From an uncultured virus (IMG/VR IMGVR_UViG_3300014964_000592) (taxonomy: Duplodnaviria; Heunggongvirae; Uroviricota; Caudoviricetes), in IMG/VR virus record IMGVR_UViG_3300014964_000592, positions 1-64,000 of that record: DNA of 64,000 bases; one strand, given 5' to 3'. Shown in pieces: positions 6,304 to 58,557 of the stretch. The number at the start of each line of letters is the position of its first letter. The first letter of the stretch is position 1. The translations under genes were made by a program, and so were the position numbers. Under the pieces are notes generated by a model, which did no database searches, was not told where the DNA came from, and saw only the letters and a program-made list of their open reading frames with translations.

Positions 6304-6376
6304 CGCGGGTTGGAGCAGTTGGAAGCTCGCCAGTTTAACTTGCTGGAGGTCGTCGGTTCGAGTCCGACACCCGCTA
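6304..6376 (+). tRNA. Initiator (fMet)-like tRNA with AAC (Val) anticodon
   Basis: Cloverleaf: acceptor CGCGGGT/ACCCGCT with C1xU72 mismatch; D stem GAGC/GCTC (A11:U24); anticodon stem CCAGT/GCTGG with loop TT-AAC-TT (AAC at 6337-6339); T arm GTCGG-TTCGAGT-CCGAC; discriminator A73; CCA not encoded. Confidence 0.9.
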
Positions 6377-6404
6377 CAAATAAAATCACTTACAAACAAA
6401 ATCA

Positions 6405-6776
6405 ATGAAAAAGTTAACCCTACAAATTGACAAAAAGTGCTTTCAGGCAATTCTGAAAGGCGAGCAGAAAGTCGAGCATCGGAACGTGTATCCCAATAAC
6501 GCCAAGAAGTATGTCATCGAAGAAGACAAGACTGATGAAAAGGGCGAAGCCATCACGGTTGTAACACCGGTTCACTACGATGCCCTCACCCTTATCAATG
6601 GTCGCCGCAAGGATGCGCCCCGTCTGACCGTGGAGGTCGTATCGGCTGAATTTGTCGTACTGACCGACGAAGACGGCAATGATTTGACCTTTGAAGAGAA
6701 TGGCGAAGTGTACTATGTTTGTCAGGTATGGTACACCCTCGGAAAGGTTCTTGAAACCGCCAACATCAACGAATAA
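6405..6776 (+). CDS. ASCH/PUA-like domain protein
   Basis: LTLQIDKKCFQAILKGEQKVEHR resembles the ASCH G-x-K-x-x-E-x-R motif. Confidence 0.65.
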   Translation: MKKLTLQIDKKCFQAILKGEQKVEHRNVYPNNAKKYVIEEDKTDEKGEAITVVTPVHYDALTLINGRRKDAPRLTVEVVSAEFVVLTDEDGNDLTFEENGEVYYVCQVWYTLGKVLETANINE

Positions 6777-6803
6777 TCATTAACCCTTTAACACTATAAG
6801 TGA

Positions 6804-7004
6804 GTTAGACGTAGAATTGATAACAACTATGGCCCCCGTCGGAACATGAACGGTGCCGGTGCCGGTGGCCGACTCGTAGCCCGTCGCACCCCTGCGGGCG
6901 TAGTTGCTGGTCGTAGCCAGCTCGGAAATCGTGAACAGCGTCGCGCTGACCTCCGCGCAGCCTTTGCTGACCAAATCCGCGCCGCTGGTGGAACAACCGG
7001 CTAA
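6804..7004 (+). CDS. Small Arg/Gly-rich protein with putative GTT start (66 aa)
   Basis: An in-frame TGA immediately precedes GTT. Translation: VRRRIDNNYGPRRNMNGAGAGGRLVARRTPAGVVAGRSQLGNREQRRADLRAAFADQIRAAGGTTG. An internal ATG exists at codon 15. Confidence 0.7.
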   Translation, partial: VRRRIDNNYGPRRNMNGAGAGGRLVARRTPAGVVAGRSQLGNREQRRADLRAAFADQIRAAGGTTG

Positions 7005-7800: not shown

Positions 7801-8681
7801 AGCCGAACAAAATCAAACAGGCAGAACAGCGCACCGTCAAGCGAAGCGAAATCAACTTTGCCTCCTACAATCCACGTACCATCAGTGACGAGGCGCGAAA
7901 AAAGCTCAAGAAAAACTTACAGACCGTCGGCCTACTGGGTGGCGTAGTATGGAACATACGCTCCGGCAATCTTGTATCGGGTCATCAGAAAGTCAGCATC
8001 ATGGATGCCGTGAACCGCTACGATGCGGAAACGGGCGCAAACGATTACGAATTTCGTGTTGAGGTCGTTGACTTCGACGATAAGACGGAAAAAGAGCAGA
8101 ACCTTTTTATGAACAACCGAGCCGTGCAGGGTACATACGACGATGACATGCTGCGCGAGCTTCTTCAAGAAATAGACTATACCAACGCCGGCTTCGACGA
8201 TACCGATATGCAGCTCCTCGGTCTTGGCGATTTCGGCGACTATGATATGGGCGATATGTTCGGCGACGATGGCGGCGATGCCACGGATGGCAACGATGCT
8301 GACGAGCCGGGCGAACCCACAGAAAACAAAGACTGGTCAAAGGGCGATGTTGTTGGCGAGCGCGAAGACCTTGCAATCCACGATGAAATGACAAAGGAAA
8401 GCGGCGAGAATCACAAGCTCGACCGCAGCGCGGATTTCTATCAGGATAGCGAAGCCAACCAGATAGCCCGCCACAACGAAGTGCAGAAAATCAAAGACCG
8501 CATCGCAAGTCAGAACGACGTGAACAAGGACGGCGGCATGTTGTCTTATGTAGTCATCAGTTTCAAGACTCCGAGCGAAAAGGTGCGCTTCATGGAAGAC
8601 TACGGCTTCGACCCTATGGCGAAATACATCAACGGCGAAGAATTTGTAAACAAATTGGAATTTGGCGATGATGAAAATTAA
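7797..8681 (+). CDS. ParB/Srx-like N-terminal domain protein
   Basis: SYNPRTI...LKKNLQTVGLLGGVVWN...LVSGHQKV; acidic middle region. Confidence 0.8.
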   Translation: MKPNKIKQAEQRTVKRSEINFASYNPRTISDEARKKLKKNLQTVGLLGGVVWNIRSGNLVSGHQKVSIMDAVNRYDAETGANDYEFRVEVVDFDDKTEKEQNLFMNNRAVQGTYDDDMLRELLQEIDYTNAGFDDTDMQLLGLGDFGDYDMGDMFGDDGGDATDGNDADEPGEPTENKDWSKGDVVGEREDLAIHDEMTKESGENHKLDRSADFYQDSEANQIARHNEVQKIKDRIASQNDVNKDGGMLSYVVISFKTPSEKVRFMEDYGFDPMAKYINGEEFVNKLEFGDDEN

Positions 8682-9235: not shown

Positions 9236-9922
9236 GTTAAAAAGCCACGTAAGACAGATTATAACGCGAGAGTCACAAAGGCACTCAAGGGAAAGGGCGT
9301 ACCCCACCTTGAAGAGCCGATGTACCGCGTATCCGCGTCGGCTTTTACAAAGGCTATACGACGCGGCAAGGCATCGCAAGGCAGGAACGGCTGGATGGTT
9401 GACCTGCATAGCAAGAGCGAATACAAGCGGATGCGATGCTTTCTTACCCCGGACGGAAAGACGGGCGTAGCAATCAAGCGCGATGGAGATGTAGTGTCTG
9501 TATTCTCCACAAGCGGAAAACGAGGAGCAATGGCAAAAATCATACCGTTTGCGGTCGCTAATGGCGGTCGCAAGCTGGATTGTTATGCTTTCTCGGATGG
9601 TCGCAGTTCACTTCACAACATGTACGGAAGATTCGGTGCAAAGGCTCGCGGCAAAATGACCTTTGACCCGCAATATAATCCGGTTTTCCAACGCACGGCG
9701 CAGGCTAATCCCGGTATGCGCAGACCCTCTCATGTCGTGGCGATGACGCTGCCGAGCAGTCTTGCCGGCGTTATGCGGGCGTACAATGCGGATAGGAAGA
9801 TTGACCTTGGGCGCGTAAGGTCGTATGACGATTACGAAAAGATGATGGATGACCGAAACGCGCATCTTGCATTACGCGGAAAGTCAAGTGGTGTCAGAGG
9901 CGCACTTGGCGGCGGTAAATAA
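9236..9922 (+). CDS. Basic hypothetical protein with putative GTT start (228 aa)
   Basis: Sequence reads TGA TAG CGA GTT AAA AAG CCA... The GTT is 28 codons upstream of, and in frame with, the ATG at 9320 and lies 7 nt after the previous stop. Confidence 0.7.
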   Translation, partial: VKKPRKTDYNARVTKALKGKGVPHLEEPMYRVSASAFTKAIRRGKASQGRNGWMVDLHSKSEYKRMRCFLTPDGKTGVAIKRDGDVVSVFSTSGKRGAMAKIIPFAVANGGRKLDCYAFSDGRSSLHNMYGRFGAKARGKMTFDPQYNPVFQRTAQANPGMRRPSHVVAMTLPSSLAGVMRAYNADRKIDLGRVRSYDDYEKMMDDRNAHLALRGKSSGVRGALGGGK

Positions 9923-9944: not shown

Positions 9945-10538
9945 ATGGCAAAGATTGAAGAAATTATCCCGTTCATCCTTTACTTTGAAGCCGGCGTAAA
10001 CAAACGCTATCTTTCACTTCCTCCCGAACAGATATTTGAGCAGGCGAAAAAGACGGGCTTCGCAAATGACCCCGACGATGCCGGCGGCGCGACCATGTGC
10101 GGTATCACGATAGCGACCTACAAGGCGTACTGCAAGCGGAAAGGCTATCCCGTACCTACGGTGTTCAGCCTGCGTAACATCACATACAAGCGTTGGCGCG
10201 ACGTACTCAAGACGCTTTTCTGGGACAGATGGAAAGCCGATGAAATCAAAAGCCAAGCCCTTGCGAACAACCTCGTCGATTGGGTGTGGGCAAGCGGCGT
10301 GAACGGCATCAAGATACCGCAGAGGCTTCTCGGCGTGACACAGGACGGAATTGTCGGCCCAAAGACGATAGCCGCAGTCAACGCAGCCAACGAAGCGGAA
10401 CTATTCACGAAGATTTACGAAGCCCGCATCAATTTCGTGGATGGCATCGTGCGCAGAAAGCCGAGCCAGAAGAAATTCATCAAGGGCTGGAAACGACGTA
10501 TCAACGCAATCACCCTATCCGGGCTGAAATTCACATGA
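9945..10538 (+). CDS. Endolysin, glycoside hydrolase 108 family with peptidoglycan-binding domain
   Basis: GFANDPDDAGGATMCGIT; DWVWASG; QRLLGVTQDGIVGPKTIAAVN; FIKGWKRRI. Confidence 0.9.
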   Translation: MAKIEEIIPFILYFEAGVNKRYLSLPPEQIFEQAKKTGFANDPDDAGGATMCGITIATYKAYCKRKGYPVPTVFSLRNITYKRWRDVLKTLFWDRWKADEIKSQALANNLVDWVWASGVNGIKIPQRLLGVTQDGIVGPKTIAAVNAANEAELFTKIYEARINFVDGIVRRKPSQKKFIKGWKRRINAITLSGLKFT

Positions 10539-22667: not shown

Positions 22668-23951
22668 TCATTGTTGTTTGATTTCAGCAGTCACGCCGTT
22701 AGTGTCGGTCACGTCTGCCGGGTTAATCGTTTTTGCGGTATCGGGATTTTCAGCAGCCACCGACAATCCTAAATCGCAGAAGCCCTTGCAAGCTCCGCGA
22801 TAGCCGTTGAAAAATTCAGTGGCGGTCATGCGTCGCTTGTTCGGCATCTGCAATTCAAGTACGGAAAGAAGATTGTCGCCACAGGCGATGTATAGCTTTC
22901 GGTCTTGCCAGAATAGCTCGCCGGGCGCATGGTGGCCACGCGGTATGTCGGTCTTTTCCGTTCTGAAAATCTTGACGCTCATGGCCTGCTTTCCAAGCAT
23001 GGCCAGTGAAGTCCAAGCTGATGGGATTGGAGTAAGTGCGCGTATGAAGTCATAGACGTAATCGGCGGGCTTGAGCCACGGAATGATGCAGTCCTTGCGA
23101 TGTAGCTTTGGCGCGTAGCATGGCTGGATGAAGTCACAGATAAGCTCCGACTGAGGAATGGGGTTGCATGAATGGGCTATGCGCTGGATTGCATCGTCTA
23201 TCATTTCCGCGCCGGCAATGCGTAGCTTGATGTGAACGTCTTCCGCGTTATCATCTTCATCAATGCCGATGGCAAGATTGTTTATGATGCCGCCGGTGTC
23301 GATTTTGTCTTCAAGCATGAACGTTGTCACGCCGGTCATGGCATTACCATCCTTGATTGCGGATGCGATGGTGGAAGCACCGCGATACATGGGCAGCATA
23401 GATGAGTGGAGGTTGATTGTACCCCACGACGGAATGGTGTATAGCGCACGTGGCAGTATTCTGAACTCCACTACTACGCCGAGCGTCGCATGAAGATTGT
23501 GGATGTGCCGCAGAAATCTATTAGAGTCAAGTTTCCGTGGTTGAAAAACAAGGATGCCCATAGATTCGGCATAAACCTTGACCGCAGATGGCCGCAGTTT
23601 CTTGCCACGCCCGCACGGTTTATCTTCCATAGTTACGACTGCCGCGACATCATATCCGTTTTCAACAAGCATTTTTAGCGTGGGAAGCGCAAACTGCCCA
23701 TTGCCGAAGAATATGATGCGTATTCCCTTGCGTGATACAGGCTTGTCAAAATCACGTTCCGGGTATGAAACAATATCAGTTTCGTCAACAATTACATAAC
23801 CGCCGGATTTCTTCAATCGCAGAAAGTAAGAGCCATCATCTTTTGGGTATAAGATTTTGGCTTCCGTAAAAATACCGCCCCCATCATTACCGTGCAGGAG
23901 TCTGCTTGGAATTTGGACTGTCTGCCCGACGCGATAAAGAGGTGTTTTCAT
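22668..23951 (-). CDS. fmt: Methionyl-tRNA formyltransferase homologue with an extra N-terminal domain
   Basis: IRIIFFGNGQFA, VVTMEDKPCGRGKKL, INLHSSMLPMYRGASTI, IDTGGII, YAPKL and IRALTPIPSAW, plus the Fmt C-terminal domain (LELQMPNKRRMTATEFFNG). ATG at 23951 overlaps the upstream HTH stop (ATGA). Confidence 0.92.
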   Translation of the reverse strand: MKTPLYRVGQTVQIPSRLLHGNDGGGIFTEAKILYPKDDGSYFLRLKKSGGYVIVDETDIVSYPERDFDKPVSRKGIRIIFFGNGQFALPTLKMLVENGYDVAAVVTMEDKPCGRGKKLRPSAVKVYAESMGILVFQPRKLDSNRFLRHIHNLHATLGVVVEFRILPRALYTIPSWGTINLHSSMLPMYRGASTIASAIKDGNAMTGVTTFMLEDKIDTGGIINNLAIGIDEDDNAEDVHIKLRIAGAEMIDDAIQRIAHSCNPIPQSELICDFIQPCYAPKLHRKDCIIPWLKPADYVYDFIRALTPIPSAWTSLAMLGKQAMSVKIFRTEKTDIPRGHHAPGELFWQDRKLYIACGDNLLSVLELQMPNKRRMTATEFFNGYRGACKGFCDLGLSVAAENPDTAKTINPADVTDTNGVTAEIKQQ

Positions 23952-27093: not shown

Positions 27094-27257
27094 TGGAATA
27101 CAATGCTCCGCTCAATGAAGAAAGTAATATCTAAAATCAAAGACATTCTTTTCATGGTCTACGCAGTCTTCGCCTGTCTTATCCTTGCGGTCATTCTTGG
27201 ATTGACAAGCGATAAGACGGAAGAAGACTACGACCCATGGGATTGCTATCAGTAACT

Positions 27258-27710
27258 ATGACAAGAGTAATCAAGTTTCGCGGAAAATCAATCGCCGATG
27301 GCAAATGGGTTTATGGCGATTTGGTACACACATCTACCCAGAAAGCGGCTATCTGGCCTACGGAAAAAGGACACGATGGCGGCATGGTAGAGGTCAGACC
27401 CAATACCGTCGGTCAGTACACCGGTCAGCGCGACCGCAACGGAAACGAAATCTATGAGGGCGATGTTGTGCGTCAGGCATGGGAAACAACCATCACGGAT
27501 GAAGATGGAGCTTTCTCTGCAAAAGGCAATCAAACCGGCATCGTTGTCATTCGTACAAGGGGCGTGTGCCTTTCGCCCTGCCTTTGCGAAAACGACATTT
27601 CGGAAGATGCAATGCTGACAAAGAACATCCCCGTGACAGGCAAACGCTCCGAAATCATCGGCAATAGCCACGATACACCATCTCTTTTTGAAGAAATCTG
27701 TAACTCTTAA
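27258..27710 (+). CDS. YopX-family protein, copy 1
   Basis: RVIKFRGK...WVYGDL...TVGQYTGQRDRNGNEIYEGDVV...EIIGN. Confidence 0.85.
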   Translation: MTRVIKFRGKSIADGKWVYGDLVHTSTQKAAIWPTEKGHDGGMVEVRPNTVGQYTGQRDRNGNEIYEGDVVRQAWETTITDEDGAFSAKGNQTGIVVIRTRGVCLSPCLCENDISEDAMLTKNIPVTGKRSEIIGNSHDTPSLFEEICNS

Positions 27711-29695: not shown

Positions 29696-29717
29696 CAACT
29701 AAACCCCAACAAGAATT

Positions 29718-30149
29718 ATGAAGAATGACATCTCACCCAACAAGGAAACGGTTGTCTTCGGCAATGATTCCGCAGTAATCCGTAAGTACATCAGCGGTAT
29801 CCCCGGTGGTCGTACTCTGGACTGCACCGGTTTCAAAGAAGACACCGTGCTGGCCGGCCACGTCATCATCAAGAAGACTGACGGCAAGTATGCCCCCATG
29901 CCCGTTAAGGCAGCAGTTCCGGCATCAGGCGAAACAGCCGCAACGCCCGCGAGCTACGACTCGCTTCCCGCCGGCGCAACCTACGTGGGCATCCTTTATC
30001 GCTCCATCAGCGTAAAGAACCCCGCAGCTTCCATCATGTACGATGGCGTCGTAAACGACAAATTAGTTCCCTATCCCATGACAAGCATCTTGACCGCGTT
30101 CAAGACCGCTTGCCCTCACATCATTTTTGAACAGGACGAGGAGGCCTAA
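29718..30149 (+). CDS. Probable head decoration protein
   Basis: GIPGGRTLD...VLAGHVII; lies between scaffold and capsid genes. Confidence 0.65.
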   Translation: MKNDISPNKETVVFGNDSAVIRKYISGIPGGRTLDCTGFKEDTVLAGHVIIKKTDGKYAPMPVKAAVPASGETAATPASYDSLPAGATYVGILYRSISVKNPAASIMYDGVVNDKLVPYPMTSILTAFKTACPHIIFEQDEEA

Positions 30150-30157
30150 GAATCAGA

Positions 30158-31246
30158 GTTAATCAGTCATTTTATTTCGATTACGCAAAGCGTTTCTTCC
30201 CCGGCCTTGTGCTGGCTATCGTAGAACGCCTCAACGAGAAGCGTGCCAATTCCGCTCTCACCTACCTTTACAAAGAAAAACTTCGCCCGCAGTTTTCGCT
30301 TGATGGCCGCTGGGCTTCCATCCTTGCGGAATACACCCGCGTAGCCGCCGACGTTGTGGCACTTGACTCCGAGCTTCCGCTCAAGAGCCGTGACACACTG
30401 GAGGTTGCTTCCGGCACAATTCCCAAAATCGGTATGAAGCTCTACCTGACCGAAAAGCAGATGAAAGACGTTGACTCGATGATTGCGCAGGGTGTTCCCC
30501 TCCAGACCATCATCGACAACATCTTCGCTGATACCCCCCGTTGCATCGAGGGCATCTGGGAGCGCATCGAAGACATCTTCCTTTCGGAGCTTTCGTCGGG
30601 TGTCGGCGTTTCCGAGCGCAACAACGGCACAGGTGTGCGCATCAACATGAATTTCTATGACGACAACCAGTTCGCTGTTTCCAAACTTTGGAGCAACACC
30701 GACGCAACTCCGCTTGACGACATCCAGAAACTTGTTGACAAGTCCATTACCGACGCAAACACCATCATCGACGCATACGCTGACGACACCGCCCTCGGTC
30801 TTCTCTACAAGAACAAGCAGGTGCGTTCACAGTTCGCGTTCAATCAGGGCATCGCCATGACCGGTTCGACCACCGTGCCGGTGCTTGACTTTGCGAAGCT
30901 CCAGCAGATTTTCCTCACCAAGTGGAACATCAATCTGCACCGCGTCGCCCGCCGTGTCAAGACCGAGCTTAACGGCGAAAAGAAAAACCATACCCCGTGG
31001 AAGACCGGAACAATTTCCTTTGTCTGCGATGAAGAGCTTGGCTCACTCGTATGGACTAACGTTGCCGAGGCTTCGCGCCCCGTTGAAGGCGTTGTCTATC
31101 AGACTGCCGACCAGTACATCCTCGCAAAGAAATATTCCAAGACCGACCCCCTCCGCGAGTTTACCGCTTCCGAGGCTATGGTTGTGCCTGTGTTGAACAA
31201 CGTTGACCGCATCTACACGCTCGACACTCAGACAGTTCAGGAATGA
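30158..31246 (+). CDS. Major capsid protein with putative GTT start (362 aa)
   Basis: AADVVALDSELPLKSR, GTIPKIG, ATPLDDI and TDPLREFT motifs. The frame extends 17 codons upstream of the GTG at 30209 to GTT-AAT-CAG (VNQSFYFDYAKRFFPGLV), with no ATG/GTG/TTG back to the in-frame TGA at 30128. Confidence 0.88.
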   Translation, partial: VNQSFYFDYAKRFFPGLVLAIVERLNEKRANSALTYLYKEKLRPQFSLDGRWASILAEYTRVAADVVALDSELPLKSRDTLEVASGTIPKIGMKLYLTEKQMKDVDSMIAQGVPLQTIIDNIFADTPRCIEGIWERIEDIFLSELSSGVGVSERNNGTGVRINMNFYDDNQFAVSKLWSNTDATPLDDIQKLVDKSITDANTIIDAYADDTALGLLYKNKQVRSQFAFNQGIAMTGSTTVPVLDFAKLQQIFLTKWNINLHRVARRVKTELNGEKKNHTPWKTGTISFVCDEELGSLVWTNVAEASRPVEGVVYQTADQYILAKKYSKTDPLREFTASEAMVVPVLNNVDRIYTLDTQTVQE

Positions 31247-32550: not shown

Positions 32551-32942
32551 TAACCACAACCGACGCAGCCAACATTCTTTACACCGCCTGCAAAATCTTT
32601 GGGATGCCCGTCTATCAAGCCGGGAACATTCCGGAGGGTAAGGTAGGCAAGGATGGCCGTGTGGTCATCCACGTCAAAGAACACACCCCCGGCTCCACTT
32701 GGAAAAAGGGATTTGTCGAAATCAATCTTTTTGCCGCTGACACGCCGAAAGGAAAGTCTGACCTAATCCGTCTTAATGAGCTTGAGCGAATGGCTGTCAA
32801 AGACCTCAAGGGCATGGGATGGCATGACGGTACGGCATACACCTTTTCCGTAGCTTCTACGATACCGATGGAAAACGCCGATTTGAAAGCCCACTACATC
32901 AATGCCAAAGTGCTTTTCAAGGTATTAAACACAATGGAATAA
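32547..32942 (+). CDS. Probable tail terminator protein
   Basis: Position immediately before the tail tube gene. Confidence 0.55.
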   Translation: MITTTDAANILYTACKIFGMPVYQAGNIPEGKVGKDGRVVIHVKEHTPGSTWKKGFVEINLFAADTPKGKSDLIRLNELERMAVKDLKGMGWHDGTAYTFSVASTIPMENADLKAHYINAKVLFKVLNTME

Positions 32943-32967
32943 TTAACCCCTTAACACCCATAAACGA

Positions 32968-33516
32968 GTTACAAACAACGCACCCAAAGTTTGCGCGGTC
33001 GGCATCAAAAAGCTGTACTATGCCGACACCAGCAAGGTAACGGCAGACCTTACCGGCGCATTGCTCGCCGCACTGCTTGCCGACGAAGCCACCAAGGAAG
33101 TCAAGAACATCCATCAGGACACGTGGACTATCGAAGAGAGCGAAGCCTCGCAGGACGGCTATCGCAATCAGCTCACCGGTTCTATCTACCGCATGGGAAC
33201 GAAGACCATGGGCGACGTAACTTTCAACTGGACTATCGGTCAGTACGACTATCCTACCAAGGCTGAGTTCCTCGGTGGTGTCGCTACCGACAAGTCGTGG
33301 AAGCGTCCCCGCGGTGTCGTCGAAATCCACAAAGTCCTCATCGCACTCACCGAAGACAATCAGTATTGCGTTCTGCCCTACGCCAACGTAGCCGGTCGTG
33401 AAGCCAACACCGACGGCGCAGTAGGTCTGGGTATCGTCGGAACGGCAATGGAGCCTACCGACCCCAACATCGCATCCGAATACTGGTTCGACTCTTCCGA
33501 GGTAGTGACCGCGTAA
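32968..33516 (+). CDS. Major tail (tube) protein with putative GTT start (182 aa)
   Basis: GTT ACA AAC...VTNNAPKVCAVGIKKLYYAD...VKNIHQDTWTIEE...FNWTIGQYD. In-frame TAA at 32944 and no canonical start before the TTG at 33061. Confidence 0.82.
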   Translation, partial: VTNNAPKVCAVGIKKLYYADTSKVTADLTGALLAALLADEATKEVKNIHQDTWTIEESEASQDGYRNQLTGSIYRMGTKTMGDVTFNWTIGQYDYPTKAEFLGGVATDKSWKRPRGVVEIHKVLIALTEDNQYCVLPYANVAGREANTDGAVGLGIVGTAMEPTDPNIASEYWFDSSEVVTA

Positions 33517-34005: not shown

Positions 34006-34211
34006 TTGGCAACGAGTGTATGCTCGGCCAAATCGCATCATTTATGGAAGCTCTCTGCCTGTCCTATGACGAGGTAGTCCATAAAATTCCATACCGAAAT
34101 CTGCTAATCATGCAGAAAGACAAGATGCACCCATGCACCGGTGTCAAAATCAGTCATTCCAGCGGTAAAGACATGGCCGCCCGCCGTCGCCAGAATAAGC
34201 GTGACGGTTAA
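33948..34211 (+). CDS. Tail assembly chaperone -1 frame extension (gpT-like)
   Basis: The -1 frame is open from the slippery site into the 34002-34211 ORF (LCLSYDEVVHKIPYRNLLIMQKDK). Confidence 0.7.
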   Translation, partial: YAAIGFTEERKSADSKTEMIGNECMLGQIASFMEALCLSYDEVVHKIPYRNLLIMQKDKMHPCTGVKISHSSGKDMAARRRQNKRDG

Positions 34212-34780
34212 ATCAGCGACCTTTCCAATGCAAGCACATCATCTTGCGACATAAACGTGGATAGGTAGCGATAATCTACTTGAAAGTTAGCCGGCAACAA
34301 GTCGGCTAATTCTTTTTTGTAGTACTCCACCCATTCATCCGGGTTCATGCAGCGCGATAGATTTGCCATAAGCTCCGATATGATGGCGTTGTCTTTCCCA
34401 TTCGGAAACCGAAGCATACGCTCAAGGGTGCGCTTCATCAGTTCAGTGGCGTTATTGGAACGATTGGATAGCGTATCGACGATGCCCTGTAATTCATTCA
34501 CGTTGGAAGCGGTAAAGATACCGCGTCGGCATTTGACCATCGCCACAAATTCATTCTCAAAAGGCGTATTGGGAGTAAACGATGACTCAAAGAGGTCGCC
34601 AAATTCCACCGACAAGGCATCTGCAACTTTCGTAAGCGCGTTTATCGACAGGCTTCTTCCGTTCAATATGTTTGAAATATGCTGTGGCAGCACACCCATC
34701 TTATCGGCAAGTGCTTTATTCGTCATTCCCTTTTGGGCTAAAATCTCGCGGATGCGCAGTTTGATGTTACTCCTATTCAT
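34208..34780 (-). CDS. XRE-family HTH regulator with C-terminal extension
   Basis: LRIREILAQKGMTNKALADKMGVLPQHISNILNG. Confidence 0.88.
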   Translation of the reverse strand: MNRSNIKLRIREILAQKGMTNKALADKMGVLPQHISNILNGRSLSINALTKVADALSVEFGDLFESSFTPNTPFENEFVAMVKCRRGIFTASNVNELQGIVDTLSNRSNNATELMKRTLERMLRFPNGKDNAIISELMANLSRCMNPDEWVEYYKKELADLLPANFQVDYRYLSTFMSQDDVLALERSLI

Positions 34781-34965
34781 GTCTATTCTTGTTTCTTTGC
34801 AAAGGTAGCCATTCCAAATCAATATAAACGATATTGGTGTATTAAATATTGTTAAAAACTTATTTCAATCAGTATTTTACTTTGTAGATACATTATTATT
34901 GTTTACCTTTGCAGTGTTAATCCTTGTTAGATATAAGGGTTTGCCAAAATGAAAAGAGTAACAAT

Positions 34966-35454
34966 ATGGAAAGAGAAATCCTATTTAGGGCAAAACACCT
35001 TAAAGCCGACTACTACAATGGCGAGTTAATCCCAGAGGGTAAGTGGCTATTTGGGTGGTACTACCAAAATCAGCATAAAGGCGAGATTGAACACAATATC
35101 ATCTTGCCACGCGAAAAAGGCTCACAAGGTCAAGCCGGGTTAGTGATAGACCCCGCCACACTTTGCCAGTTTACCGGGCTACACGATATAGACGGAAAGC
35201 AGATTTTTGATGGCGATATTCTTGACTCCAAGACAAGCGAATATCAGACCAACGGATACCGCTTTGTCTGCAAATGGATTGACAGTGGCTTTGCATTGAC
35301 TTTCATCGGTCTTACTTATGGCGTACCGGAACGTAATCCGTGGATAAACCGCTATCCCCTTTGCCATAACAATGTCAAAGACCTACGCATAATCGGAAAT
35401 GTGTTTGACAATCCAGAATTGATGAAAGATGCAAAAATCGAAGAATTTAGATAA
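34966..35454 (+). CDS. YopX-family protein, copy 2
   Basis: REILFRAK...TLCQFTGLHDIDGKQIFDGDIL...IIGNVFDNPELM. Confidence 0.85.
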   Translation: MEREILFRAKHLKADYYNGELIPEGKWLFGWYYQNQHKGEIEHNIILPREKGSQGQAGLVIDPATLCQFTGLHDIDGKQIFDGDILDSKTSEYQTNGYRFVCKWIDSGFALTFIGLTYGVPERNPWINRYPLCHNNVKDLRIIGNVFDNPELMKDAKIEEFR

Positions 35455-35461
35455 GCCAAAA

Positions 35462-36151
35462 ATGACACCAAAACAGACAATCGCATTATCGCCCATTCAG
35501 CAGATTAAACTGGAACTCTACCGCGAGTTTGGCGACAAGGCTCAAGAGGCCTTTGATTTCATCGTAGGCGATGAAACTATCACTGCCGTAGCGACCACAA
35601 ACCCCGCCACGGAAGAAGACGGCGTTTACATCATCTACGAAGATGGTACGCACGAAGCCTTTAATGGTGAAAACCGCAAGAATGGTGTAAAGTACGTCGG
35701 TGTAATTAATGGAAAGCGTCGCATCGCGGTCGCCTTGCACAATATCGGTGGCGAAGCTGCCGAATACCAATTCTTGAAAGATGGCGCAAAGTCACCGGAA
35801 CACTCGGTATATTATACCCGTCAGCAAGGTATTAATGCTTTTGAAGACTTCACTGGGGCGAATAATACGGCGCACATCATAAAGGACTACGACTCGGAAA
35901 TCCCATTTGACAAGTTTGAAGATGGCGAATACATCGCATCTATGGGCGAATGGGGTGTGCTGATGTCTTACGCATCGCTCATCAATGAAGCCCTTAAATA
36001 TGTCGGCGGAACTCCTATTAAGGGATGGCTTTGGTCATCCACCGAGAACAGTCAGAACGGCGCATGGTACGTCAACTTCACAGATGGCTACACCAACTAC
36101 TACTACGGCAAGTACCACGGTAACTCGGTGAGGGCGGTCGCCGCATTTTAA
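35462..36151 (+). CDS. C-type-lectin-fold (DUF1566-like) protein, probable DGR target
   Basis: C-terminus WLWSSTENSQNGAWYVNFTDGYTNYYYGKYHGNSVRAVAAF, followed by a GC-rich hairpin. Confidence 0.75.
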   Translation: MTPKQTIALSPIQQIKLELYREFGDKAQEAFDFIVGDETITAVATTNPATEEDGVYIIYEDGTHEAFNGENRKNGVKYVGVINGKRRIAVALHNIGGEAAEYQFLKDGAKSPEHSVYYTRQQGINAFEDFTGANNTAHIIKDYDSEIPFDKFEDGEYIASMGEWGVLMSYASLINEALKYVGGTPIKGWLWSSTENSQNGAWYVNFTDGYTNYYYGKYHGNSVRAVAAF

Positions 36152-44935: not shown

Positions 44936-45355
44936 TTAATGGTCTAAATCCTTACATTCATGCAAAAGTGCGCACAGAGAATCCATCAGCTTTTGAATAA
45001 CCTCATCATCTGCGTATAGCTCCCTCATGTGTTCAAAATCATGGGTATGACACAACTTGTGAAACTCTTCCTCACGCCAGTCTTTTAGAATTGCCATAAT
45101 TTCTGCTATCGTAGTTGGGGTGTGGCTTCTTCCGCGATAGTGCAAAAAAGCAACCATTTTATTGGCATTGATTTCGTCGGTGAATAATTCCGCAACAGAC
45201 ACATCAAGCGCATCAGCGATTTTCATCAATGATTGCAGGCTGGGGTTTCCTTTGCCGTTTGCTATGTTAGAGAGCATCGCCTCCGTCACACCGGCGGTGG
45301 CTGCGACGTCCTTTGCGGTTAGTCCTCTACTTTTTAGAATATCCTTAATTCTCAT
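44936..45355 (-). CDS. XRE-family HTH regulator
   Basis: MRIKDILKSRGLTAKDVAATAGVTEAMLSNIANGKGNPSLQSLMKIADALDV. Confidence 0.9.
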   Translation of the reverse strand: MRIKDILKSRGLTAKDVAATAGVTEAMLSNIANGKGNPSLQSLMKIADALDVSVAELFTDEINANKMVAFLHYRGRSHTPTTIAEIMAILKDWREEEFHKLCHTHDFEHMRELYADDEVIQKLMDSLCALLHECKDLDH

Positions 45356-49206: not shown

Positions 49207-50076
49207 ATGAAGACCCTTAACGACGAAATCAACGAAATCAAAATCGCTAACAATAGCAAGGCGGCCAAGAAAGCCGCCCTCGCAAAACTGGGCATCACGC
49301 CCTACGAAATCGACATCATTCTTGAGGGTGTTGAATGTGCCACCCGTGGTCGCTTCACCTTTGGCGTAGAAATGGAGTGCTTCGTCAACCGAGGCGCAAT
49401 CAGAAACGCCGCAGAACGCACTGGTATGGCCTACGAATACGAGGGCTACAACCACCGCGACGGTCACGACTACTTTAAGTTTGTATCAGACGGCTCGGTG
49501 CGCGGTCTGGCTGACCCCATTGAATGTGTGTCGCCGGTGTTGGCTGGCACAAACGGCAAGCGCACACTGAAAGCCGCTTGCAAGACGCTGAACACCGCAA
49601 ACGCCCGCGTAAACAGCACATGCGGTTTGCACGTACACATCGGCGCAGCCAATCTGACCGGCAAGCAGTTTGCCAACGTGTTTGCCAACTATGCGATGCT
49701 TGAGGCAGTCATCGACACCTTTATGTCGCCCTCACGTCGCAACAACGAATATGCCGCAAGCATACAGTCACAGGTCAGATACCTTATGCCGGCCAATAGC
49801 GTAGGCGAGGTGCAAAGAGCCTTACGTGACAACCGCTACTGGAAAATCAACCCCATGGCATACAACCGCCATAAGACGATTGAATTTAGGCAGCACGCCG
49901 GCACGACCAACTACGACAAAATCATCAACTGGGTCACTTTCTGCGGCAAGCTCGTCATCTGGTCAAAGAAAAACCGCCTGACCGCCCCGGTTGCAAGCAT
50001 CGACGAGATACCCTTTCTGAACGCTGACGAAAAAGCCTTTTTCAAGGCACGTGCCAATCAGTTTGCAAGCCGTTAA
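49207..50076 (+). CDS. Putative amidoligase (COOH-NH2 ligase type 2)
   Basis: FTFGVEMEC, DGSV, ECVSPVL, STCGLHVHIG and KTIEFRQHAGT motifs. Confidence 0.88.
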   Translation: MKTLNDEINEIKIANNSKAAKKAALAKLGITPYEIDIILEGVECATRGRFTFGVEMECFVNRGAIRNAAERTGMAYEYEGYNHRDGHDYFKFVSDGSVRGLADPIECVSPVLAGTNGKRTLKAACKTLNTANARVNSTCGLHVHIGAANLTGKQFANVFANYAMLEAVIDTFMSPSRRNNEYAASIQSQVRYLMPANSVGEVQRALRDNRYWKINPMAYNRHKTIEFRQHAGTTNYDKIINWVTFCGKLVIWSKKNRLTAPVASIDEIPFLNADEKAFFKARANQFASR

Positions 50077-50167
50077 ACCGCCTATCGTGTTAGGGGTTGA
50101 AACATACCCCTAACACCCCTTAAATAACCCCTACAATCAATCAACAACCGCAAAATAGATATACACC

Positions 50168-50746
50168 ATGTGCGTCATCATAGTTAAGCCGGCAGGCGTA
50201 AAAATGCCCTCAAACGAAATCATCAACGCAGCCTACAACGCTAACCCCCACGGATGCGGCATCGTATCGCCGTCAGCCTTTTACAAGGGTCTGAGCTATC
50301 GTAGCTTCAAAAAGTGCCTTAAACAAGTCAGCCAAGACGAGCCGTGCATCATACACTTTCGCCTTGCTACCCATGGCTCAATCAAGCAGGCGAATTGCCA
50401 CCCCTTTCGCCGTGGCGATGTATGGTTTGCACATAACGGAATATTAGACATCAGACCGGTGGGCGACATGACCGACAGTGAAACCGCCCTACAAAATATC
50501 ATCTACCCGGCTATCGTCAAGTATGGCTATGGCTCTGACGGCATGGATTTAGCCGTCGCCAAGGTCATAGGCTATTCAAAATTTGCCTTTCTGCAAGGCG
50601 ATGATGTGCGTCTTTATGGCGATTTCATCAAGTCTGACGATGGATGTTACTACTCAAATTTACGCTTCATGCCTTATGTGGGCTGGCATCGGAATTACCG
50701 TAACTCAGCCAACAAAATGGGGTCTTTGATTACAACCGGGCGATAG
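50168..50746 (+). CDS. Class II (Ntn) glutamine amidotransferase
   Basis: N-terminal MC, NPHGCG, HFRLATHG, NCHPF, AHNGI and TDSE motifs. Confidence 0.9.
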   Translation: MCVIIVKPAGVKMPSNEIINAAYNANPHGCGIVSPSAFYKGLSYRSFKKCLKQVSQDEPCIIHFRLATHGSIKQANCHPFRRGDVWFAHNGILDIRPVGDMTDSETALQNIIYPAIVKYGYGSDGMDLAVAKVIGYSKFAFLQGDDVRLYGDFIKSDDGCYYSNLRFMPYVGWHRNYRNSANKMGSLITTGR

Positions 50747-50771: not shown

Positions 50772-50845
50772 TACGACAATGAAATATAAGTCGTAATTAA
50801 GCGAGGTCAGTTTAAGCCGGCCTCGCTTTCGTTTTATGACCTTTG
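50772..50845 (+). promoter_or_regulatory. Putative late promoter of the tail tip/fibre operon
   Basis: TACGAC-N12-GTCGTA (50772-50795), 42 nt, GACCTTTG (50838-50845). Confidence 0.65.
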
Positions 50846-50851
50846 CGTATT

Positions 50852-53800
50852 ATGCTGACCATCTACGATAACAAAGGCGTAAAACGCTTTGAAACGCCAA
50901 TTAACAAAGGCTCTAAACGTGTCTTCAAGTTAATGGCAGACGACTATGTGACGCTAATTTTCAGCGTCGCAAAACCTATCTATTTCAAGTTAGGCGATTA
51001 TTGCGACATACCCGGATTTGGTAGGTTTGAACTTGTATCGCCTTATAAGCCGGTCTACAATCGTGCAACCAATGGCTATGACTACGAGTTAAGGCTGGAT
51101 GCGCAACACATGAAATGGCGCAATAAAATCATGCGCTATCTGCCCAAGACCGGAGGTGCTGAATGTGCGTGGTCACTGACTGCGACCGCCGACGTGCATT
51201 TGGCACAGGTGCTTGAGAATATTGAAGCTCTGGTAACTGAAACGCTTATGAATGGCGATAAGGTTATCAATCAGCGATATTTATACAATGGCGCGACGAA
51301 ATGGGCCACGTTGATAGATGGCAGCGTGGAGGCATCGGCAAAGACAATCAGCTACGACAGCACAAACATAATCGACGCACTTACGGCAATCGCGGAAGCA
51401 TTTGAATGTGAGTGGTGGCTGAATGGCAATATCATCTGCCTCGGAAAATGCGAAGAAACCAACGAATACGTTGACCTTGAAATCGGCATAAACGTAGCCG
51501 AGATGTCAAGAAGTGACTCGTCGGAAGACTATGTGACGCGCATCTTGGCGTTTGGCAGTGAGCGCAACATATCGCCCAGATACCGCAAAGACCTCCTTTT
51601 TGATGTCAAGGAAATAGCCAATGGCGGCAATCGTGTCAGCGATACAAGCCGACCGCTGGAGGCTGAATGGTTTGCATCTTCTATGGTGGAAACATCGTCA
51701 AGCGACAATACCCTCAAGCGCGTCAAGGGCATCACGATTGAAATCATCGACTCCACCGGTGCGGTCACGACCACGCTGAATGGCGTTATTTACAACCCGG
51801 ACTATAAGAGCGGAATATCGGATAAGAACTGGCTTCAACTGCCGAATGGCGCAGTCATGCAAGCCGGTCAGCGTTTCCGCATCAAGAATATCATTGAAAG
51901 CAAGGTCAAATCAAGCTATTTTTCCAGCCGTTACTCCGCTTATGATGATATTTCCAATGTGGTGCGCAACGGCATCGTGACAAGCCGATTGATGCTCCCT
52001 GTGTCGCACGGAACGCCCTATATCGACTATAAGCCGGGGCTGTCCATGGAAGAAGGCGTGGAAGATGTCGTTGTATTTGAAGATGTCTATCCACGTGCAG
52101 TTTGCGCCATCACAAAGATTGATACCGTGCAGCGCAAAGAAACCATCCAGAACGATGACGGAACGACAACCGAAACGACCTTTACCGCTTACAAAATCAA
52201 GGATGATTTCTTCACGTCTGCGCATCCCTTTGAAAATGATTACATCGTACCCAATGAAACGCTCAAGATAACATTCCAAGACGGAAAGCGATATAAAGAG
52301 GGCGATGTCATCCCGGATGGTAAGAAAGTGGGCGACCTTATCAATCCTGAAAGCGGAAAGCTGAACGGATGGACTTTTGAGGTGCAATTCACCAAAGACA
52401 AGGATGGCTCGGCTATCTGGGAAATAGTCAGGGATAACGAGGTCTTCATACCGAATGAAATCCTATGCCCTGAAATCGGCGACCAGTTTGTGCTGACCGG
52501 CTTTGATATATCGGTTGTCGATGACCTTTATGTGGAAGAAGCGGAAAAGGAGCTGCTTGACAAGGCGACCAAATACCTTGAAAAGCTAAACACCGACCCA
52601 TCTACATACGATTGCACAATGATGCCCGACGTAATGAAAGCCGGGCTGACCCTCGGACTCGGAAAGCGCGTCAATCTAATCAACGATGCGTTCATTGAAA
52701 CCACCACCGACGCAAACGGAAGAAAGTGGGGTCGCAAGAGCCGTGTCATTGGCTATGAAATTCCCCTTGATATTCCGTATGACAATCCCGTCTACACCAT
52801 TGGTGAAAAGGCGGCATATTCCCGCTTTGGTGAAATTGAAGACAAAATCGACGCACTGAAATTCTCCATGACCGCAGGCAAGAATTACCTTGGCGGTTAC
52901 TATTCCGATGGGTCTTCATCATCCAATGGCGGCATCTACGTCATCAAGCAGACCGACATCACGCCGGCAAGCGAAATCAACGTATTCTCGGCACTGCGCA
53001 GCTACCTTGAATTTACATCCAAAAAGGCAAAGGAAATCATCAATTACCTTTGGACTTTTATGCAGGGCATCCGCGTAGGCAACTATGTGATGAATAACGA
53101 TGGCGCGAAGATTGACCCCAATGGCGATGCGGAATTTAACGATGTCGTAATCCGCAAGGGTGCATCGGTAGGTACTGACCTTAATGTTGGCGGTGATGCT
53201 ACTGTTGGGAACGAGCTAACTGTCAAAAAAGGCGTGACCATCGGCGACTACTATCAGCCGGGTGCGTATGGTGGTCGCATCTGGATTGATGGCCTTGGAA
53301 AAGTACACATTGAAACCGACTATCTTGATGCAAGGGAGAAGATTGAAGCCAAAGAGGTGGAAATTCAGGAAGAAACCCACGTCGGTGGCTGTCAGATTAT
53401 ATCCCCGGCGGCTATGCGCTGCTCAAGGGTAATTCCAATATACAATGATGCCAACAGCGTTGTTGCTTATAAATGTTTCTTCACTGCGGAAGATGAAACC
53501 GGCACTCAGATTTTCAACCAGTTTGAGGTCGGTGACTTGGCTAAATGCGAAACATTCAACCTGACCAAGCAGCCAAACGGAAAGATGGGCAACCATTATT
53601 ATTGGCGCAAGGTTACGGAGGTCGGCTACGTCAACAAGGGCGATGCTGATTACGATGACGATTTCGGTATGGAGGGTTATATTGTTGTTTCCAACTTGCC
53701 GAAAGAAAAAGATACGGGCAGCGATGCTCCTTTGGCCGGCGACCGCATTATTACCGTCGGCAACGATGACCCGGCAAAGGCAGACCGCTCCAATCTTATC

Positions 53801-56800
53801 ATCCTTGCAAGCTACGGAAGCGGAAGCCCCTACATCTATCAGTATAAGGGCATCAACACCTTTGCGCTGACGAAAGACAATCTCAAGGTGGCAATATCAC
53901 CCAACGGCAACCTTTTCACCGGTAAATTCGTCATTGAGAACGGAACGGAAGAAGTTGATGTCGTTGACTACATTGAAAACAACATCTATCTTGAGGCATA
54001 TCAGCTTGTACTTTCCAACGAGATGGCCGGTGTGCCTTGCGATGTCAACGGCAATATTATCGGCGACCTGCCAAGTTCAAAGATTACAGTCTTTAAGGGC
54101 AAGACCGTTGAAACCGACTGGACTCTTTCATCGGAAGCCATCGGCTGTAAGGCATCCATCGTTTCTGACCATGTATATCTATCGGAATTGACCGACAAGA
54201 ACGCCACGGTCACGATTACAGCCACAAAGAAAGACTGCCCCACGCTGACAAAGGTAATGACCATCTGCAAGCTCAAAGAGGGCGAAGCGGGCGTTTCCGG
54301 CGACCACGCAGTGCAGTTTGAGATTGAGCCTGACAAGCCCATGGTGCTTGCCGACATGGATGGCGTGTGCGACCCCGCCAACCTTGGGTGTAAGGTCTAC
54401 ATGGTTATCGGCAATCAAAACCGCGTTGAGGTTCCACTTGCCAACACTGCGGCCATCACGACCTACAAGGCAGGCGATAAATTGCTTTTCTTCAACGGCA
54501 GATTGTTTGTCAGCCGACCCGTTGAAGTTGATGTTCCCACCGACCTTGTTTTGCGTTACGTCATCGTCAACCAAGACTATGTTACCGATGAAACAACCGG
54601 CAAGGTGTCGCCAGTTATAACGTCGGAAACAGAGCATATCTATACCGGCAAGGCTATTGAGATGTCGGCAAGGATGAAACACATCATCTTCAAACTATAT
54701 CGTGGAAACACACTTATCGACATGCAGACCGTTGTTGTGACTACCGACGCATCTGCGATGAAAGTGGTGTATGATACGCGCTTTGAGGTCAATGAAAAGG
54801 AAATCTTTGCCCATGCAAGCCGAATATCGCAGACGGAAAAGGATATTGCCGAGTTGCGCATTACGGCAGATGGCATTTCCGCGAACATCGGCAAACAGAT
54901 GGGCATCATTCAGGACATCATCAATGGCGCAGGGCGAAATCTTCTCTTGAAGACCAACTCGGCAGGTGTATGGAAATACGCATCCGACAGTATGTCTAAC
55001 GCATCGACCATAGGTCTTCTGAACAATCCCAACAACGCCACCAATTTCTATGTAGCACCACGCACCGACTCCACATACGAGATATTCTACTATCCCATTC
55101 GCCCGGAACTGATAAAACAGGGCGAAAAGTACACGTTCACGGTCAACATCAAGAATAAGACCAATTCGGTGTCTGACGTTCTTGAGTTTTACGCAGTGAT
55201 AGCAAACACCAACTCGTCTGTACAACTGACGAAAACGGCATACTTTGACGTGGTTGTAGGAAATGGCGAGTACCGATTGACCGTTGAACTTGAAGCCAGC
55301 GCAACGGGAACAAAGACCGGTACTCAAGTGCTGATTTTGGGTATTGTGCCGGCAAGAATAAACACATGGACTGCCATCTCGCTTTGGCATCCCAAACTTG
55401 AAAAGGGGTCAACAGCCACCGCATATTCCGAAGCACCGGAAGACCGCGAGGATTACCTTTATGCCGAGCTGAACACCAAAATCGACGTTACGGCAGAGGG
55501 GTTGCGGTCAGAGGTTACAAAGAAGATTGGTGAGTCGGAAGATAGGATTAACGCTGAACATAAATCCCTTATCCAGCAATCAGCCGATGAAATTCTTGCA
55601 CAGGTGGAAGCATGGGATGACGAACTTGGCGCAAGTATATCGGAAATACGTCAGACCGCAAACAGCATCAGCCTTAAAGTGCAAGAGCTTGCCGGCTACG
55701 AAAACCTTGTGACTGGAAATAGAACTGGAACTGGTTGGCTTTTACAAGACTATACCACTGGTGAATTTGTAGACACCACCCCAGACGAGAATGGTCAATA
55801 CATAATAGCCGTTGGTGATACGTCGGAAAGAAGATTGCGTACATCTCTTTTCAATCTTCAAGCAAATACCAAATACACCCTTTCGTTTGTGCGTGGTAGT
55901 ATAAATGCTAACACGAGTGGCTTTGCCATTGAAATAAAATATGGGGATGCAGGAACTATTTTGCATAGCAAAACATTCCTTGCTAATGCAATGGTGAATG
56001 AAATCCGCGAAACGCTGACTTTCACAACTGGAGATAGTGTGGTAGAGAACGCTTTCATCGACTTTATCCATCGTGGAAATCGCCCCAACGTGCAAATGTC
56101 AACCATGATGCGCATATCGCAAGTAATTCTTGAGATAGGCGAAATCGCACACCCTTATGTGGAAGACGCGACAGGTTTGTTGGCGACAGGTATTGATATT
56201 ATCAATAGGAAGATTGTATTCACATCCGACAATATCATATTCCGAAACAACAAGGGCGAGCAGTCTATGTTCATAGACAAGGATGGTCGTATCCTTGCAA
56301 AATTTATCAATGTAGAAGAGTTGCACGTAGACCATCTTATCGCCGGTGATGAAGATGGCGAATGTGTGGAAATAGACCCCGTTCAGAAAGCTATCTACAT
56401 CTATGACATTAACCATGAGCTTTGCACGACCATAAACGGTGAAGCGCATCCCGGTGGTATCAATGAAATTTACAAGGAAGTTACAGGTGGCTCAATAGAC
56501 CTCTATACAGCTATAAATGGCAACCAAATATCAAATGGCGGTTTTAGCTTTTACGGAGATAATTCAGGCATAGAAAAATCGCAGAATTATAAGGTATATT
56601 CCAAATCATGGCCGGCAGATGCCGCACCTATTGTTGAATTTAGTCAAGGCCGTATCTATTGCCACGCATACGCCCCCGGTTTTTACAAGCAAAGGAAAGA
56701 TAATTTATCATACGGTGCTGATACAATCGTCAGCATGGAAGATATGAGGCCATATTTCGCATCGGTCTATGTATCGGTTTGTCTGGAGGTTGCGGATGAT

Positions 56801-58111: not shown

Positions 58112-58285
58112 ATGCTTTGGATTGGAAATAAAGAGGTCGGTCAGCTTTGGATAGGCCAAAAGCAAGTGCAAGCCCTTTATGTCGGAGCTAAACTTGTATG
58201 GGAAGCCGTCAGCAGTTGCTTCGGTAGCGGCTTTTGGCGAGAAAAGCTACCATGGAAAGGGAAAGACGCATGGAAAAATTTTTAA
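58112..58285 (+). CDS. Small tail-associated protein (57 aa)
   Basis: MLWIGNKEVGQLWIGQKQVQALYVGAKLVWEAVSSCFGSGFWREKLPWKGKDAWKNF. Confidence 0.7.
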   Translation: MLWIGNKEVGQLWIGQKQVQALYVGAKLVWEAVSSCFGSGFWREKLPWKGKDAWKNF

Positions 58286-58305
58286 CCCCAAATACTGTAT
58301 AACGA

Positions 58306-58557
58306 GTTAAGAAAATCACAAAATGGATTAAGGAAAGCAATCGCTACAAGCATCTCGCAGGGGGCATCGCAATAGGCATGGTCAGCAATACGCCTTATTG
58401 CGCTGCCCTTTGCGGCTGTGGCGTTGCATCCGCACTTGAGCTAAAAGATAAGCTCTGGGGCGGTGAATGGGATTGGATAGACTGGTCGCTGACCGTCGCC
58501 GGTGTCGCCATCGGCTATTCCATCCGAGTAGGCATCACATTACTGATTAAATCCTGA
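58306..58557 (+). CDS. Small membrane protein with putative GTT start (83 aa)
   Basis: Sequence reads TAA CGA GTT AAG AAA...: VKKITKWIKESNRYKHLAGGIAIGM...ELKDKLWGGEWDWIDWSLTVAG. It fills the gap between flanking genes; the first ATG is codon 25. Confidence 0.72.
   Translation, partial: VKKITKWIKESNRYKHLAGGIAIGMVSNTPYCAALCGCGVASALELKDKLWGGEWDWIDWSLTVAGVAIGYSIRVGITLLIKS

Follow-up and report, generated by a model that had tools for sequence, protein, structure and literature searches.

Candidate formyl-valine initiation in gut Bacteroidales phages: GTT start codons on virion genes and an initiator-type tRNA with the matching anticodon

The question raised by this locus is where the gene for the major tail (tube) protein begins. 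The gene lies in the DNA of an uncultured virus of the Caudoviricetes (IMG/VR record IMGVR_UViG_3300014964_000592, positions 1 to 64,000), and we refer to this whole stretch of 64,000 nucleotides as the window. A first-pass annotation, made from the letters alone, had proposed that the gene opens with GTT behind a normal translation-initiation leader, 31 codons upstream of the TTG called as its start. Our analysis supports the GTT. We found that the same codon opens four further genes, including that of the major capsid protein, and that it matches the anticodon of an initiator-type tRNA encoded by the phage. We consider it likely, from comparisons of sequences and a structural model, that these elements belong to a phage-encoded formyl-valine initiation system. 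The features at the tail gene are:

32943..32967, plus strand: A/C-rich leader before the tail-tube gene
32968..33516, plus strand: major tail (tube) protein gene, 182 codons, supported start GTT (PHROG, homologue alignment, relatives, AlphaFold, Foldseek)
33061..33063, plus strand: TTG chosen as start by gene callers and rejected here, within predicted helix 30-38

The letters from position 32941 read AATTAACCCCTTAACACCCATAAACGA, followed by GTT at 32968, as had been claimed. The gene located 5' of the tail-tube gene terminates with TAA at 32940-32942. A second TAA (32944-32946) is in frame with the tail-tube gene, which confirms that no start further upstream is available, and the frame is open from there. 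There is no in-frame ATG, GTG or TTG between the TAA at 32944 and the TTG at 33061, which is 31 codons 3' of the GTT. The stretch from the GTT to the TTG encodes a peptide beginning VTNNAPKVCAVGIKKLYYAD.

We searched 5.8 billion proteins for homologues of the tail protein. Homologues at 60-75% identity were approximately 181 amino acids long and covered 95-100% of the GTT-started query. The methionine of the full-length, distant homologues aligns with the valine encoded by the GTT; these proteins start at the GTT position and not at the TTG. One of them, P0017, opens MSNPAPKISAVGIKKLWY at the place of the window's VTNNAPKVCAVGIKKLYY. The closest homologues (79-99% identity) had all been called short, at 142-168 amino acids with varied internal starts. 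In the profile PHROG 14600, positions 4-176 of 178 are matched by residues 15-187 of the open frame, so the extension is covered. A GTT preceded by GA was kept in 16/16 close-clade tail loci (the window, L001-L011 and L125-L128), the next three to four codons varying among them, and more distant relatives have ATG at the GTT position.

The AlphaFold model of the tail protein, made with 38 sequences, had a predicted local distance difference test (pLDDT) score of 87.6 and a predicted template modelling (pTM) score of 0.81. A strand at residues 13-19 precedes the TTG position (residue 32), which itself is inside helix 30-38. The best Foldseek matches of the model were tail/connector chains of the mycobacteriophages Bxb1 and Douge, the lambda gpV tube and other tail-tube chains (E 1e-6 to 1e-3). 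These are tail-tube or tail assembly chains, which bears out the name major tail (tube) protein. The gene lies after the capsid and connector genes, the order known from siphoviruses. The expectation that the 31 codons before the TTG encode an ordered strand was borne out, and the alignment and the model both support an opening of the tail-tube gene at GTT 32968 rather than at TTG 33061.

We scanned the window for GA-GTT-A/G opening long frames and compared the candidates with relatives. Five genes appear to open with GTT, at 6804, 9236, 30158, 32968 and 58306; those at 9236 and 30158 had been missed in the earlier reading. Besides the tail gene, the features concerned are:

6780..6803, plus strand: A/C-rich leader (TTAACCCTTTAACAC and following letters), ending in an in-frame TGA directly before GTT
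6804..7004, plus strand: 66-amino-acid basic, Gly-rich protein, predicted GTT start; family-wide partner gene of the tRNA
9236..9922, plus strand: 228-amino-acid protein, predicted GTT start (TAG CGA GTT AAA), directly upstream of the endolysin gene
9945-10538: GH108 endolysin gene
30158..31246, plus strand: major capsid protein gene, predicted GTT start (AGA GTT AAT)
58283..58305, plus strand: A/C-rich leader of the 83-amino-acid gene
58306..58557, plus strand: 83-amino-acid hydrophobic small protein (phrog_38535), predicted GTT start

At 62-73% identity, capsid homologues are full length, and their opening residues, M[NEKQ][QKER]S[LFI][YF], align with VNQSFYFDY of the window; closer homologues were called 14-34 residues short. 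The capsid GTT was kept in 8/8 close loci. Relatives of the capsid gene read TGA GTT AAA, with the stop adjoining the GTT and the following peptide conserved. At 9236, the GTT was kept in an orthologue of 44% identity. The frame of the 58306 gene has a TAA two codons before the GTT, and this GTT was kept at 89-90% identity; a homologue of 39% identity has an ATG start four residues later. Out-of-frame occurrences of GA-GTT at 10987 and 26424, as well as G034 19876, were rejected as spurious, being inside other frames or better fitted by an ATG.

If the true starts were instead the internal TTG at 33061 and, in the capsid gene, GTG at 30209, the upstream frame would be untranslated and the phage tRNA would act as an elongator or as an anti-defence decoy. 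These are the starts chosen by gene callers (P0002, P0122), and altered anticodon loops of phage tRNAs have been connected with escape from defences. This explanation is very unlikely in our view. The upstream residues of both the tail and the capsid protein are conserved as protein in relatives, with synonymous changes, and align with the N-termini of Met-started homologues. In the tail protein they form a confident strand in the AlphaFold model. The called capsid start is not conserved; relatives have GTT in place of GTG 30209. Use of the tRNA as an elongator is argued against by its 1:72 mismatch and A11:U24 pair, described below.

Each GTT lies 8 to 28 nucleotides past the stop of the upstream gene. 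This spacing is compatible with a second alternative, in which translation enters the N-terminal part from the gene upstream, through frameshifting, bypassing or termination-reinitiation, and no separate start codon exists there. We give this very little credence. In-frame stops directly precede GTT in several genes and lineages: several close relatives of the tail and capsid genes have an in-frame stop directly before the GTT or one codon 5', and in two tail loci (L127 and L128) only CGA separates an in-frame TAA from the GTT. The upstream genes and spacers differ among the five sites, the homologues are separate Met-started genes, and even reinitiation would require a tRNA able to read GUU. 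We considered and rejected a translational bypass from GAA-TAA to GAG, which would land in the wrong frame.

The first-pass annotation had described the leader of the tail gene as of the type found before ATG genes, with similar leaders before the GTTs at 6804 and 58306. Both statements were confirmed. The leader AAACCCCAACAAGAATT-ATG occurs at 29701-29720, and A/C-rich leaders of the AACCC type precede 8/48 ATG genes compared to 1.8 expected. Neither this excess nor the conservation of GTT in relatives is a matter of chance. A similar leader precedes the ATG version of the 6804 small gene in a relative (G001), and the capsid (30158) and 9236 sites are without the long leader motif. Because the leader precedes ATG genes and is absent from these two sites, it is ordinary for this phage and is not what specifies GTT. 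The 28-nucleotide leader recalls promoters of single-subunit RNA polymerases, and we dropped that reading, with its leaderless mRNA: the motif is absent at the capsid and 9236 genes and also precedes ATG genes, and there is no such polymerase in the annotation. According to PMC6847099, Bacteroidetes mRNAs are without Shine-Dalgarno sequences. What distinguishes the GTT sites is the dinucleotide GA at positions -2/-1, present at 5/5 GTT genes compared to 5/47 ATG genes.

The codon GTT would be read by a tRNA with anticodon AAC, and the window encodes one:

6304..6377, plus strand: initiator-type tRNA, anticodon AAC, predicted to read GUU (ARAGORN; Rfam tRNA, 48.6 bits)

This is the sole tRNA in the window and was called tRNA-Val by ARAGORN. 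It has a C1:U72 mismatch (Rfam flags 1:72 as non-paired), A11:U24 and discriminator A73, and it retains G2:C71 and C3:G70. The anticodon loop is UUAACUU, with U37, on a stem CCAGU/GCUGG that includes U31:G39. In five prophage-carrying Bacteroidales genomes, the only full-length matches to this tRNA were the prophage copy and the tRNA-Met(CAU) initiators, at 72-73% identity. The matched host initiators have C1 opposite U72 or C72, and their D arm and variable loop are the same as those of the phage tRNA. The best matches in E. coli were tRNA-Met genes, with a median of four per genome; in the example inspected they stood in a tandem triple, which we take to be the metZWV initiator operon. The host tRNA-Val(UAC), with G1:C72, C11:G24, loop CUUACAA and A37, is unlike the phage tRNA. 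Among the 32 distinct host tRNAs recovered, A11 was found only in the initiator.

As given in PMC9976931, a 1:72 mismatch and a purine11:pyrimidine24 pair are recognition elements for formyltransferase, the mismatch blocks use by EF-Tu, and A35, C36 and A73 are valine identity elements. The phage tRNA has the NAC anticodon together with these valine elements; in the alignment described below, A35 and A73 are invariant and C36 is present in every phage member. It lacks the features of an elongator tRNA-Val (paired 1:72, pyrimidine11:purine24, purine 37). Of the features of the methionine initiator, it has the unpaired 1:72 and A11:U24, and it is without the CAU anticodon and methionine identity. 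The mRNA context G(-2) A(-1) GUU A/G(+4) is complementary to positions U38 to U33 of the tRNA loop, and this extra pairing would take place on the ribosome.

We scanned IMG/VR with a pattern based on the design of this tRNA and found at least 108 contigs with a match; the locus counts below hold among the matches listed. ARAGORN identified 106 tRNAs, with anticodon GAC (97), AAC (6) or UAC (3). An alignment of 37 sequences was made from 34 distinct phage sequences, two host initiators and the E. coli initiator. Cloverleaf pairing was found in 95.2% of its cells, compared to 77.1% in shuffles and 40-51% with partners slid, and 12 cloverleaf pairs had changed on both sides. Position 1:72 was unpaired in 37/37 (C:A, C:U or C:C), and A11:U24 was present in 37/37. 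L100 and L102, pattern hits in Paenibacillus and Mycobacterium, proved not to be tRNAs.

In most loci a small basic, Gly-rich open reading frame (ORF) is located approximately 400-450 nucleotides 3' of the tRNA (396-625 nucleotides overall), as is the 6804 gene in the window. Thirty of the at least 108 loci had too little flanking sequence, and 78 were judged. The linked small ORF had GA-GTC in 66 GAC loci, GA-GTT in three AAC loci and GA-GTA in two UAC loci of identical sequence. None of the 78 judged loci had a non-cognate valine codon on the linked small ORF. The small proteins are clearly homologous across anticodon classes; those of the window and of a GAC-type phage (G034) share GPRRNMNGAG.GGRLVA...SQLG.REQRR.DL. 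The tRNAs nearest the AAC type (L174 and L225) have anticodon GAC and small ORFs that open with GTC. A UAC phage has an orthologous capsid gene (68% identity) that opens TGA GTA AAT CAA TCG. The capsid gene is the second one whose predicted start codon follows the anticodon: GTA in the UAC phage and GTT in the AAC phages. A search with the tail protein of the window found no homologue in the four fragmentary GAC/UAC records nearest the AAC tRNA. GTC is the rarest valine codon (15-18%) in the GAC phages, and GTT makes up 25% in this phage; valine codons thus show no preference for the cognate one, which speaks against a role of the tRNA in codon supply.

These data also bear on whether GTT could be a sequencing or assembly artefact, or a miscall of ATG at a modified base. 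The same GTT was present in independent metagenome assemblies and in isolate genomes, and GTT, GTC and GTA each match the local tRNA. Nothing was found that speaks for an artefact, and we regard the chance of one as negligible.

Several observations were made on the tRNA family itself. In six loci (of the L151-L258 set) the tRNA breaks off after the anticodon arm, so that its 5' part alone is present, and gives way to unrelated AT-rich sequence; an intron, an integration junction or the end of a phage may account for this. Two contigs (L206 and L226) have two family tRNAs each, approximately 550 nucleotides apart. GAC-type phages encode several paralogous basic proteins of 70-83 amino acids (G032 30605, 29598 and 18924; G034 34334), all of which open GA GTC AGA A[GA]A AAA (V-R-[RK]-K). 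Because all these paralogues open with GTC, the whole small-protein family in the GAC phages appears to use a valine start.

The window also encodes an enzyme homologue that could act on such a tRNA:

22668..23951, minus strand: methionyl-tRNA formyltransferase (Fmt) homologue, 427 amino acids from ATG (TIGR00460, Pfam and PDB sequence matches)

The match to the fmt equivalog model TIGR00460 scored 217.6 bits, compared to a cut-off of 201.5, and the Pfam domains Formyl_trans_N and Formyl_trans_C both matched. The six best PDB sequence matches were Fmt proteins (E 1e-45 to 9e-38), with ArnA at 1e-21, and the segment LHSSMLPMYRG aligns with the active-site region of Fmt. The start is likely the ATG 13 codons inside the listed GTG frame. 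An additional N-terminal domain of approximately 77 amino acids has no family match. This ATG shares letters with the TGA of the gene upstream, whose product has a Cys-rich, zinc-ribbon-looking peptide at its end. An Fmt homologue was found in 9/9 phages and prophages of the AAC clade, on the same contig as the tRNA in four host genomes, and the hosts' own fmt (40-44% identity) is retained on other contigs. In the UAC type, the homologue was present in 2/3 records searched, in one of them 1.7 kb from the capsid gene that opens with GTA. It was absent in 12/12 GAC-type or tRNA-less relatives searched. Peptide deformylase (PF01327) was not found in four records searched.

The association of tRNA, start codon and Fmt homologue can be weighed against a third alternative, in which the host's formylmethionine (fMet) initiator reads GTT weakly, as a near-cognate start, in the manner reported for the GTC of Streptomyces sigR, and the phage tRNA is unrelated. 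There is precedent for such starts: natural GTC initiation by the normal machinery is described in PMC5472188, and in E. coli, GUU reporters without mutant tRNA gave low amounts of Met-initiated protein. A near-cognate start leaves four points unexplained: the agreement of start codon and anticodon across three classes, the use of a very weak start for the virion proteins made in the greatest amounts, the co-occurrence of an Fmt gene with the system, and the specificity of GA at -2/-1 for GTT sites. In addition, a dedicated tRNA exists and covaries with the start codon. We judge this alternative improbable, though the most plausible of the four. Each of the four alternatives is at odds with the covariation, the alignments of homologues or the stops in frame.

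The reading that we prefer, a formyl-valine initiation system encoded by the phage, would work as follows. The phage would run its own initiation channel with a tRNA that has the body of the host initiator, an AAC anticodon and a rebuilt anticodon arm. Host valyl-tRNA synthetase (ValRS) would charge this tRNA with valine, as we infer from A35, C36 and A73 being valine identity elements. The phage Fmt homologue would then formylate Val-tRNA(AAC), a step suggested by the retention of the 1:72 mismatch, A11:U24, G2:C71 and C3:G70. IF2 would put the tRNA in the P site at GUU in the context GA-GUU-A/G, behind ordinary leaders of the Bacteroidales type. Five gene products of the window, including the major capsid and tail-tube proteins, would begin with valine or formyl-valine. 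The purpose that we favour is licensing of the virion and late genes of a temperate phage, whose translation would then depend on expression of the phage tRNA. The record has a provirus classification, the prophage was found in genomes of Muribaculaceae and in related ones, and prophages with the full system occur in cultured Muribaculaceae isolates. The cultured carriers Muribaculaceae bacterium Isolate-036 and Lepagella muris NM04_E33 each have the tRNA, fmt and the capsid and tail genes with GTT together on a single contig. We also favour, somewhat more tentatively, the broader proposal that many gut Bacteroidales phages have a natural orthogonal valine initiator-type tRNA, in some clades with a dedicated formyltransferase, and with it use GUC, GUU and GUA starts that the host alone cannot use, on selected genes that extend to those of the major capsid and tail proteins.

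Several points weigh against these proposals. Three consecutive G:C pairs in the anticodon stem are a mark of bacterial initiators, and the host and E. coli initiators keep G:C at 29:41, 30:40 and 31:39. The three are absent from the window tRNA, which has A:U, G:C and U:G at these positions. U37 is abnormal for any tRNA. The missing G:C pairs are the main difficulty; the longer complementarity offered by the rebuilt loop may make up for them. The Fmt match of the UAC phage, at 178.5 bits, is below the curated cut-off, and GAC-type phages manage without an Fmt of their own. The covariation has its own limits. Four of the 78 judged loci had no small basic ORF and three more (L226, L212 and L175) failed the rule used for judging, although L226 does have GA-GTC. 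The small gene of L212 (G001) has ATG despite the tRNA, so that individual genes of a phage with the tRNA need not open with GTT. Many of the loci are close kin, so that independent events are few: three anticodon classes and two or three genes.

One gene is located between the tRNA and the small GTT gene:

6405..6776, plus strand: 123-amino-acid protein (phrog_625, function unknown), conserved position

The Atlas gave an ASCH (RNA-binding, PUA-like) lead for this gene, from 27% of the members of one related cluster; a Pfam search with the protein had no significant match, and ASCH was not confirmed. Other genes adjoin the main features. PAPS-reductase-like and ParB/methyltransferase-like genes (7015-8681) adjoin the tRNA module, and an amidoligase and class-II glutamine amidotransferase pair (49207-50746) comes before the giant tail gene; both sets may be DNA-modification modules. 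The giant tail gene is an ORF of 2264 amino acids (50843-57637) with tail and tail-fibre PHROG matches, and is followed by small ORFs and the GTT-started 83-amino-acid protein. Two paralogous genes, 27237-27710 and 34924-35454 (phrog_8684 / phrog_98, function unknown), flank the structural block. Two genes for helix-turn-helix repressor-like proteins are on the minus strand (34208-34822 and 44936-45355). A stretch of approximately 30 nucleotides, AAAATGCGGCGACCGCCCTCACCGAGTTAC, occurs three times on the minus strand, at 36124 in the window and at 64424 and 65247 of G000; its reverse complement is found at the 3' ends that paralogous plus-strand genes, among them 35429-36151, have in common.

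In textbook accounts, protein synthesis in cells and viruses begins with a methionine initiator tRNA. The exceptions known to us are weak near-cognate starts read by the methionine initiator tRNA, or tricks with an internal ribosome entry site. If our reading is correct, this would be the first natural case of routine initiation by a non-methionine initiator tRNA, with the start signal itself reassigned on major virion genes. In lysogens it could keep virion production locked at the level of translation, or it could allow initiation to survive an attack by the host or its defences on tRNA-fMet, and it would point to a new level at which lysis-lysogeny or counter-defence is controlled. It would also explain why gene callers truncate or miss such genes in gut viromes, and it would provide a ready-made orthogonal initiation pair (tRNA and Fmt) for synthetic biology. 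Our literature search, which left most subscription journals outside its reach, found no initiator tRNA with a valine anticodon that occurs naturally in phages or cells; it found engineered systems and sigR only.

The closest counterpart is the engineered E. coli initiator tRNA i-tRNA(AAC), which, as described by Hutvagner et al. 2021 (bioRxiv 10.1101/2021.05.25.445580) and Scopelliti et al. 2025 (bioRxiv 10.64898/2025.12.21.695813), initiates only at GUU, with valine or formyl-valine. The same sources report that it is limited by charging and formylation and improves with overexpression of ValRS and Fmt. Because of these limits, a phage-encoded Fmt would fit once abundant proteins depend on the system. 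Both tRNAs combine an initiator body with an AAC anticodon. The engineered one is man-made and differs from metY in the anticodon alone. The phage tRNA occurs naturally, its anticodon arm is rebuilt throughout, and it is accompanied by an Fmt homologue of its own and by a fixed GA-GUU-A/G context.

Three natural systems can be compared as well. The GTC start of Streptomyces sigR likewise uses a valine-family codon as a natural bacterial start. As presented in PMC5472188, it is weakly read by the normal initiator, is repressed by IF3, has no dedicated tRNA and belongs to a single regulatory gene, whereas the GTT starts of the phage are on major structural genes. The second comparison is with tRNA-fMet(CAU) encoded by other phages, which has the same acceptor and D-arm design and is also phage-carried; it keeps CAU and reads AUG, whereas the family described here has GAC, AAC or UAC anticodons. 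The third is with suppressor tRNAs of gut phages, which reportedly recode stop codons, as Borges et al. and Peters et al. are said to have found in 2022. There too, a phage-borne tRNA alters the reading of late genes, possibly as a timing switch. Suppressor tRNAs act on stop codons during elongation, whereas here it would be the start codon that is changed, which would need an initiator-type tRNA and its formylation.

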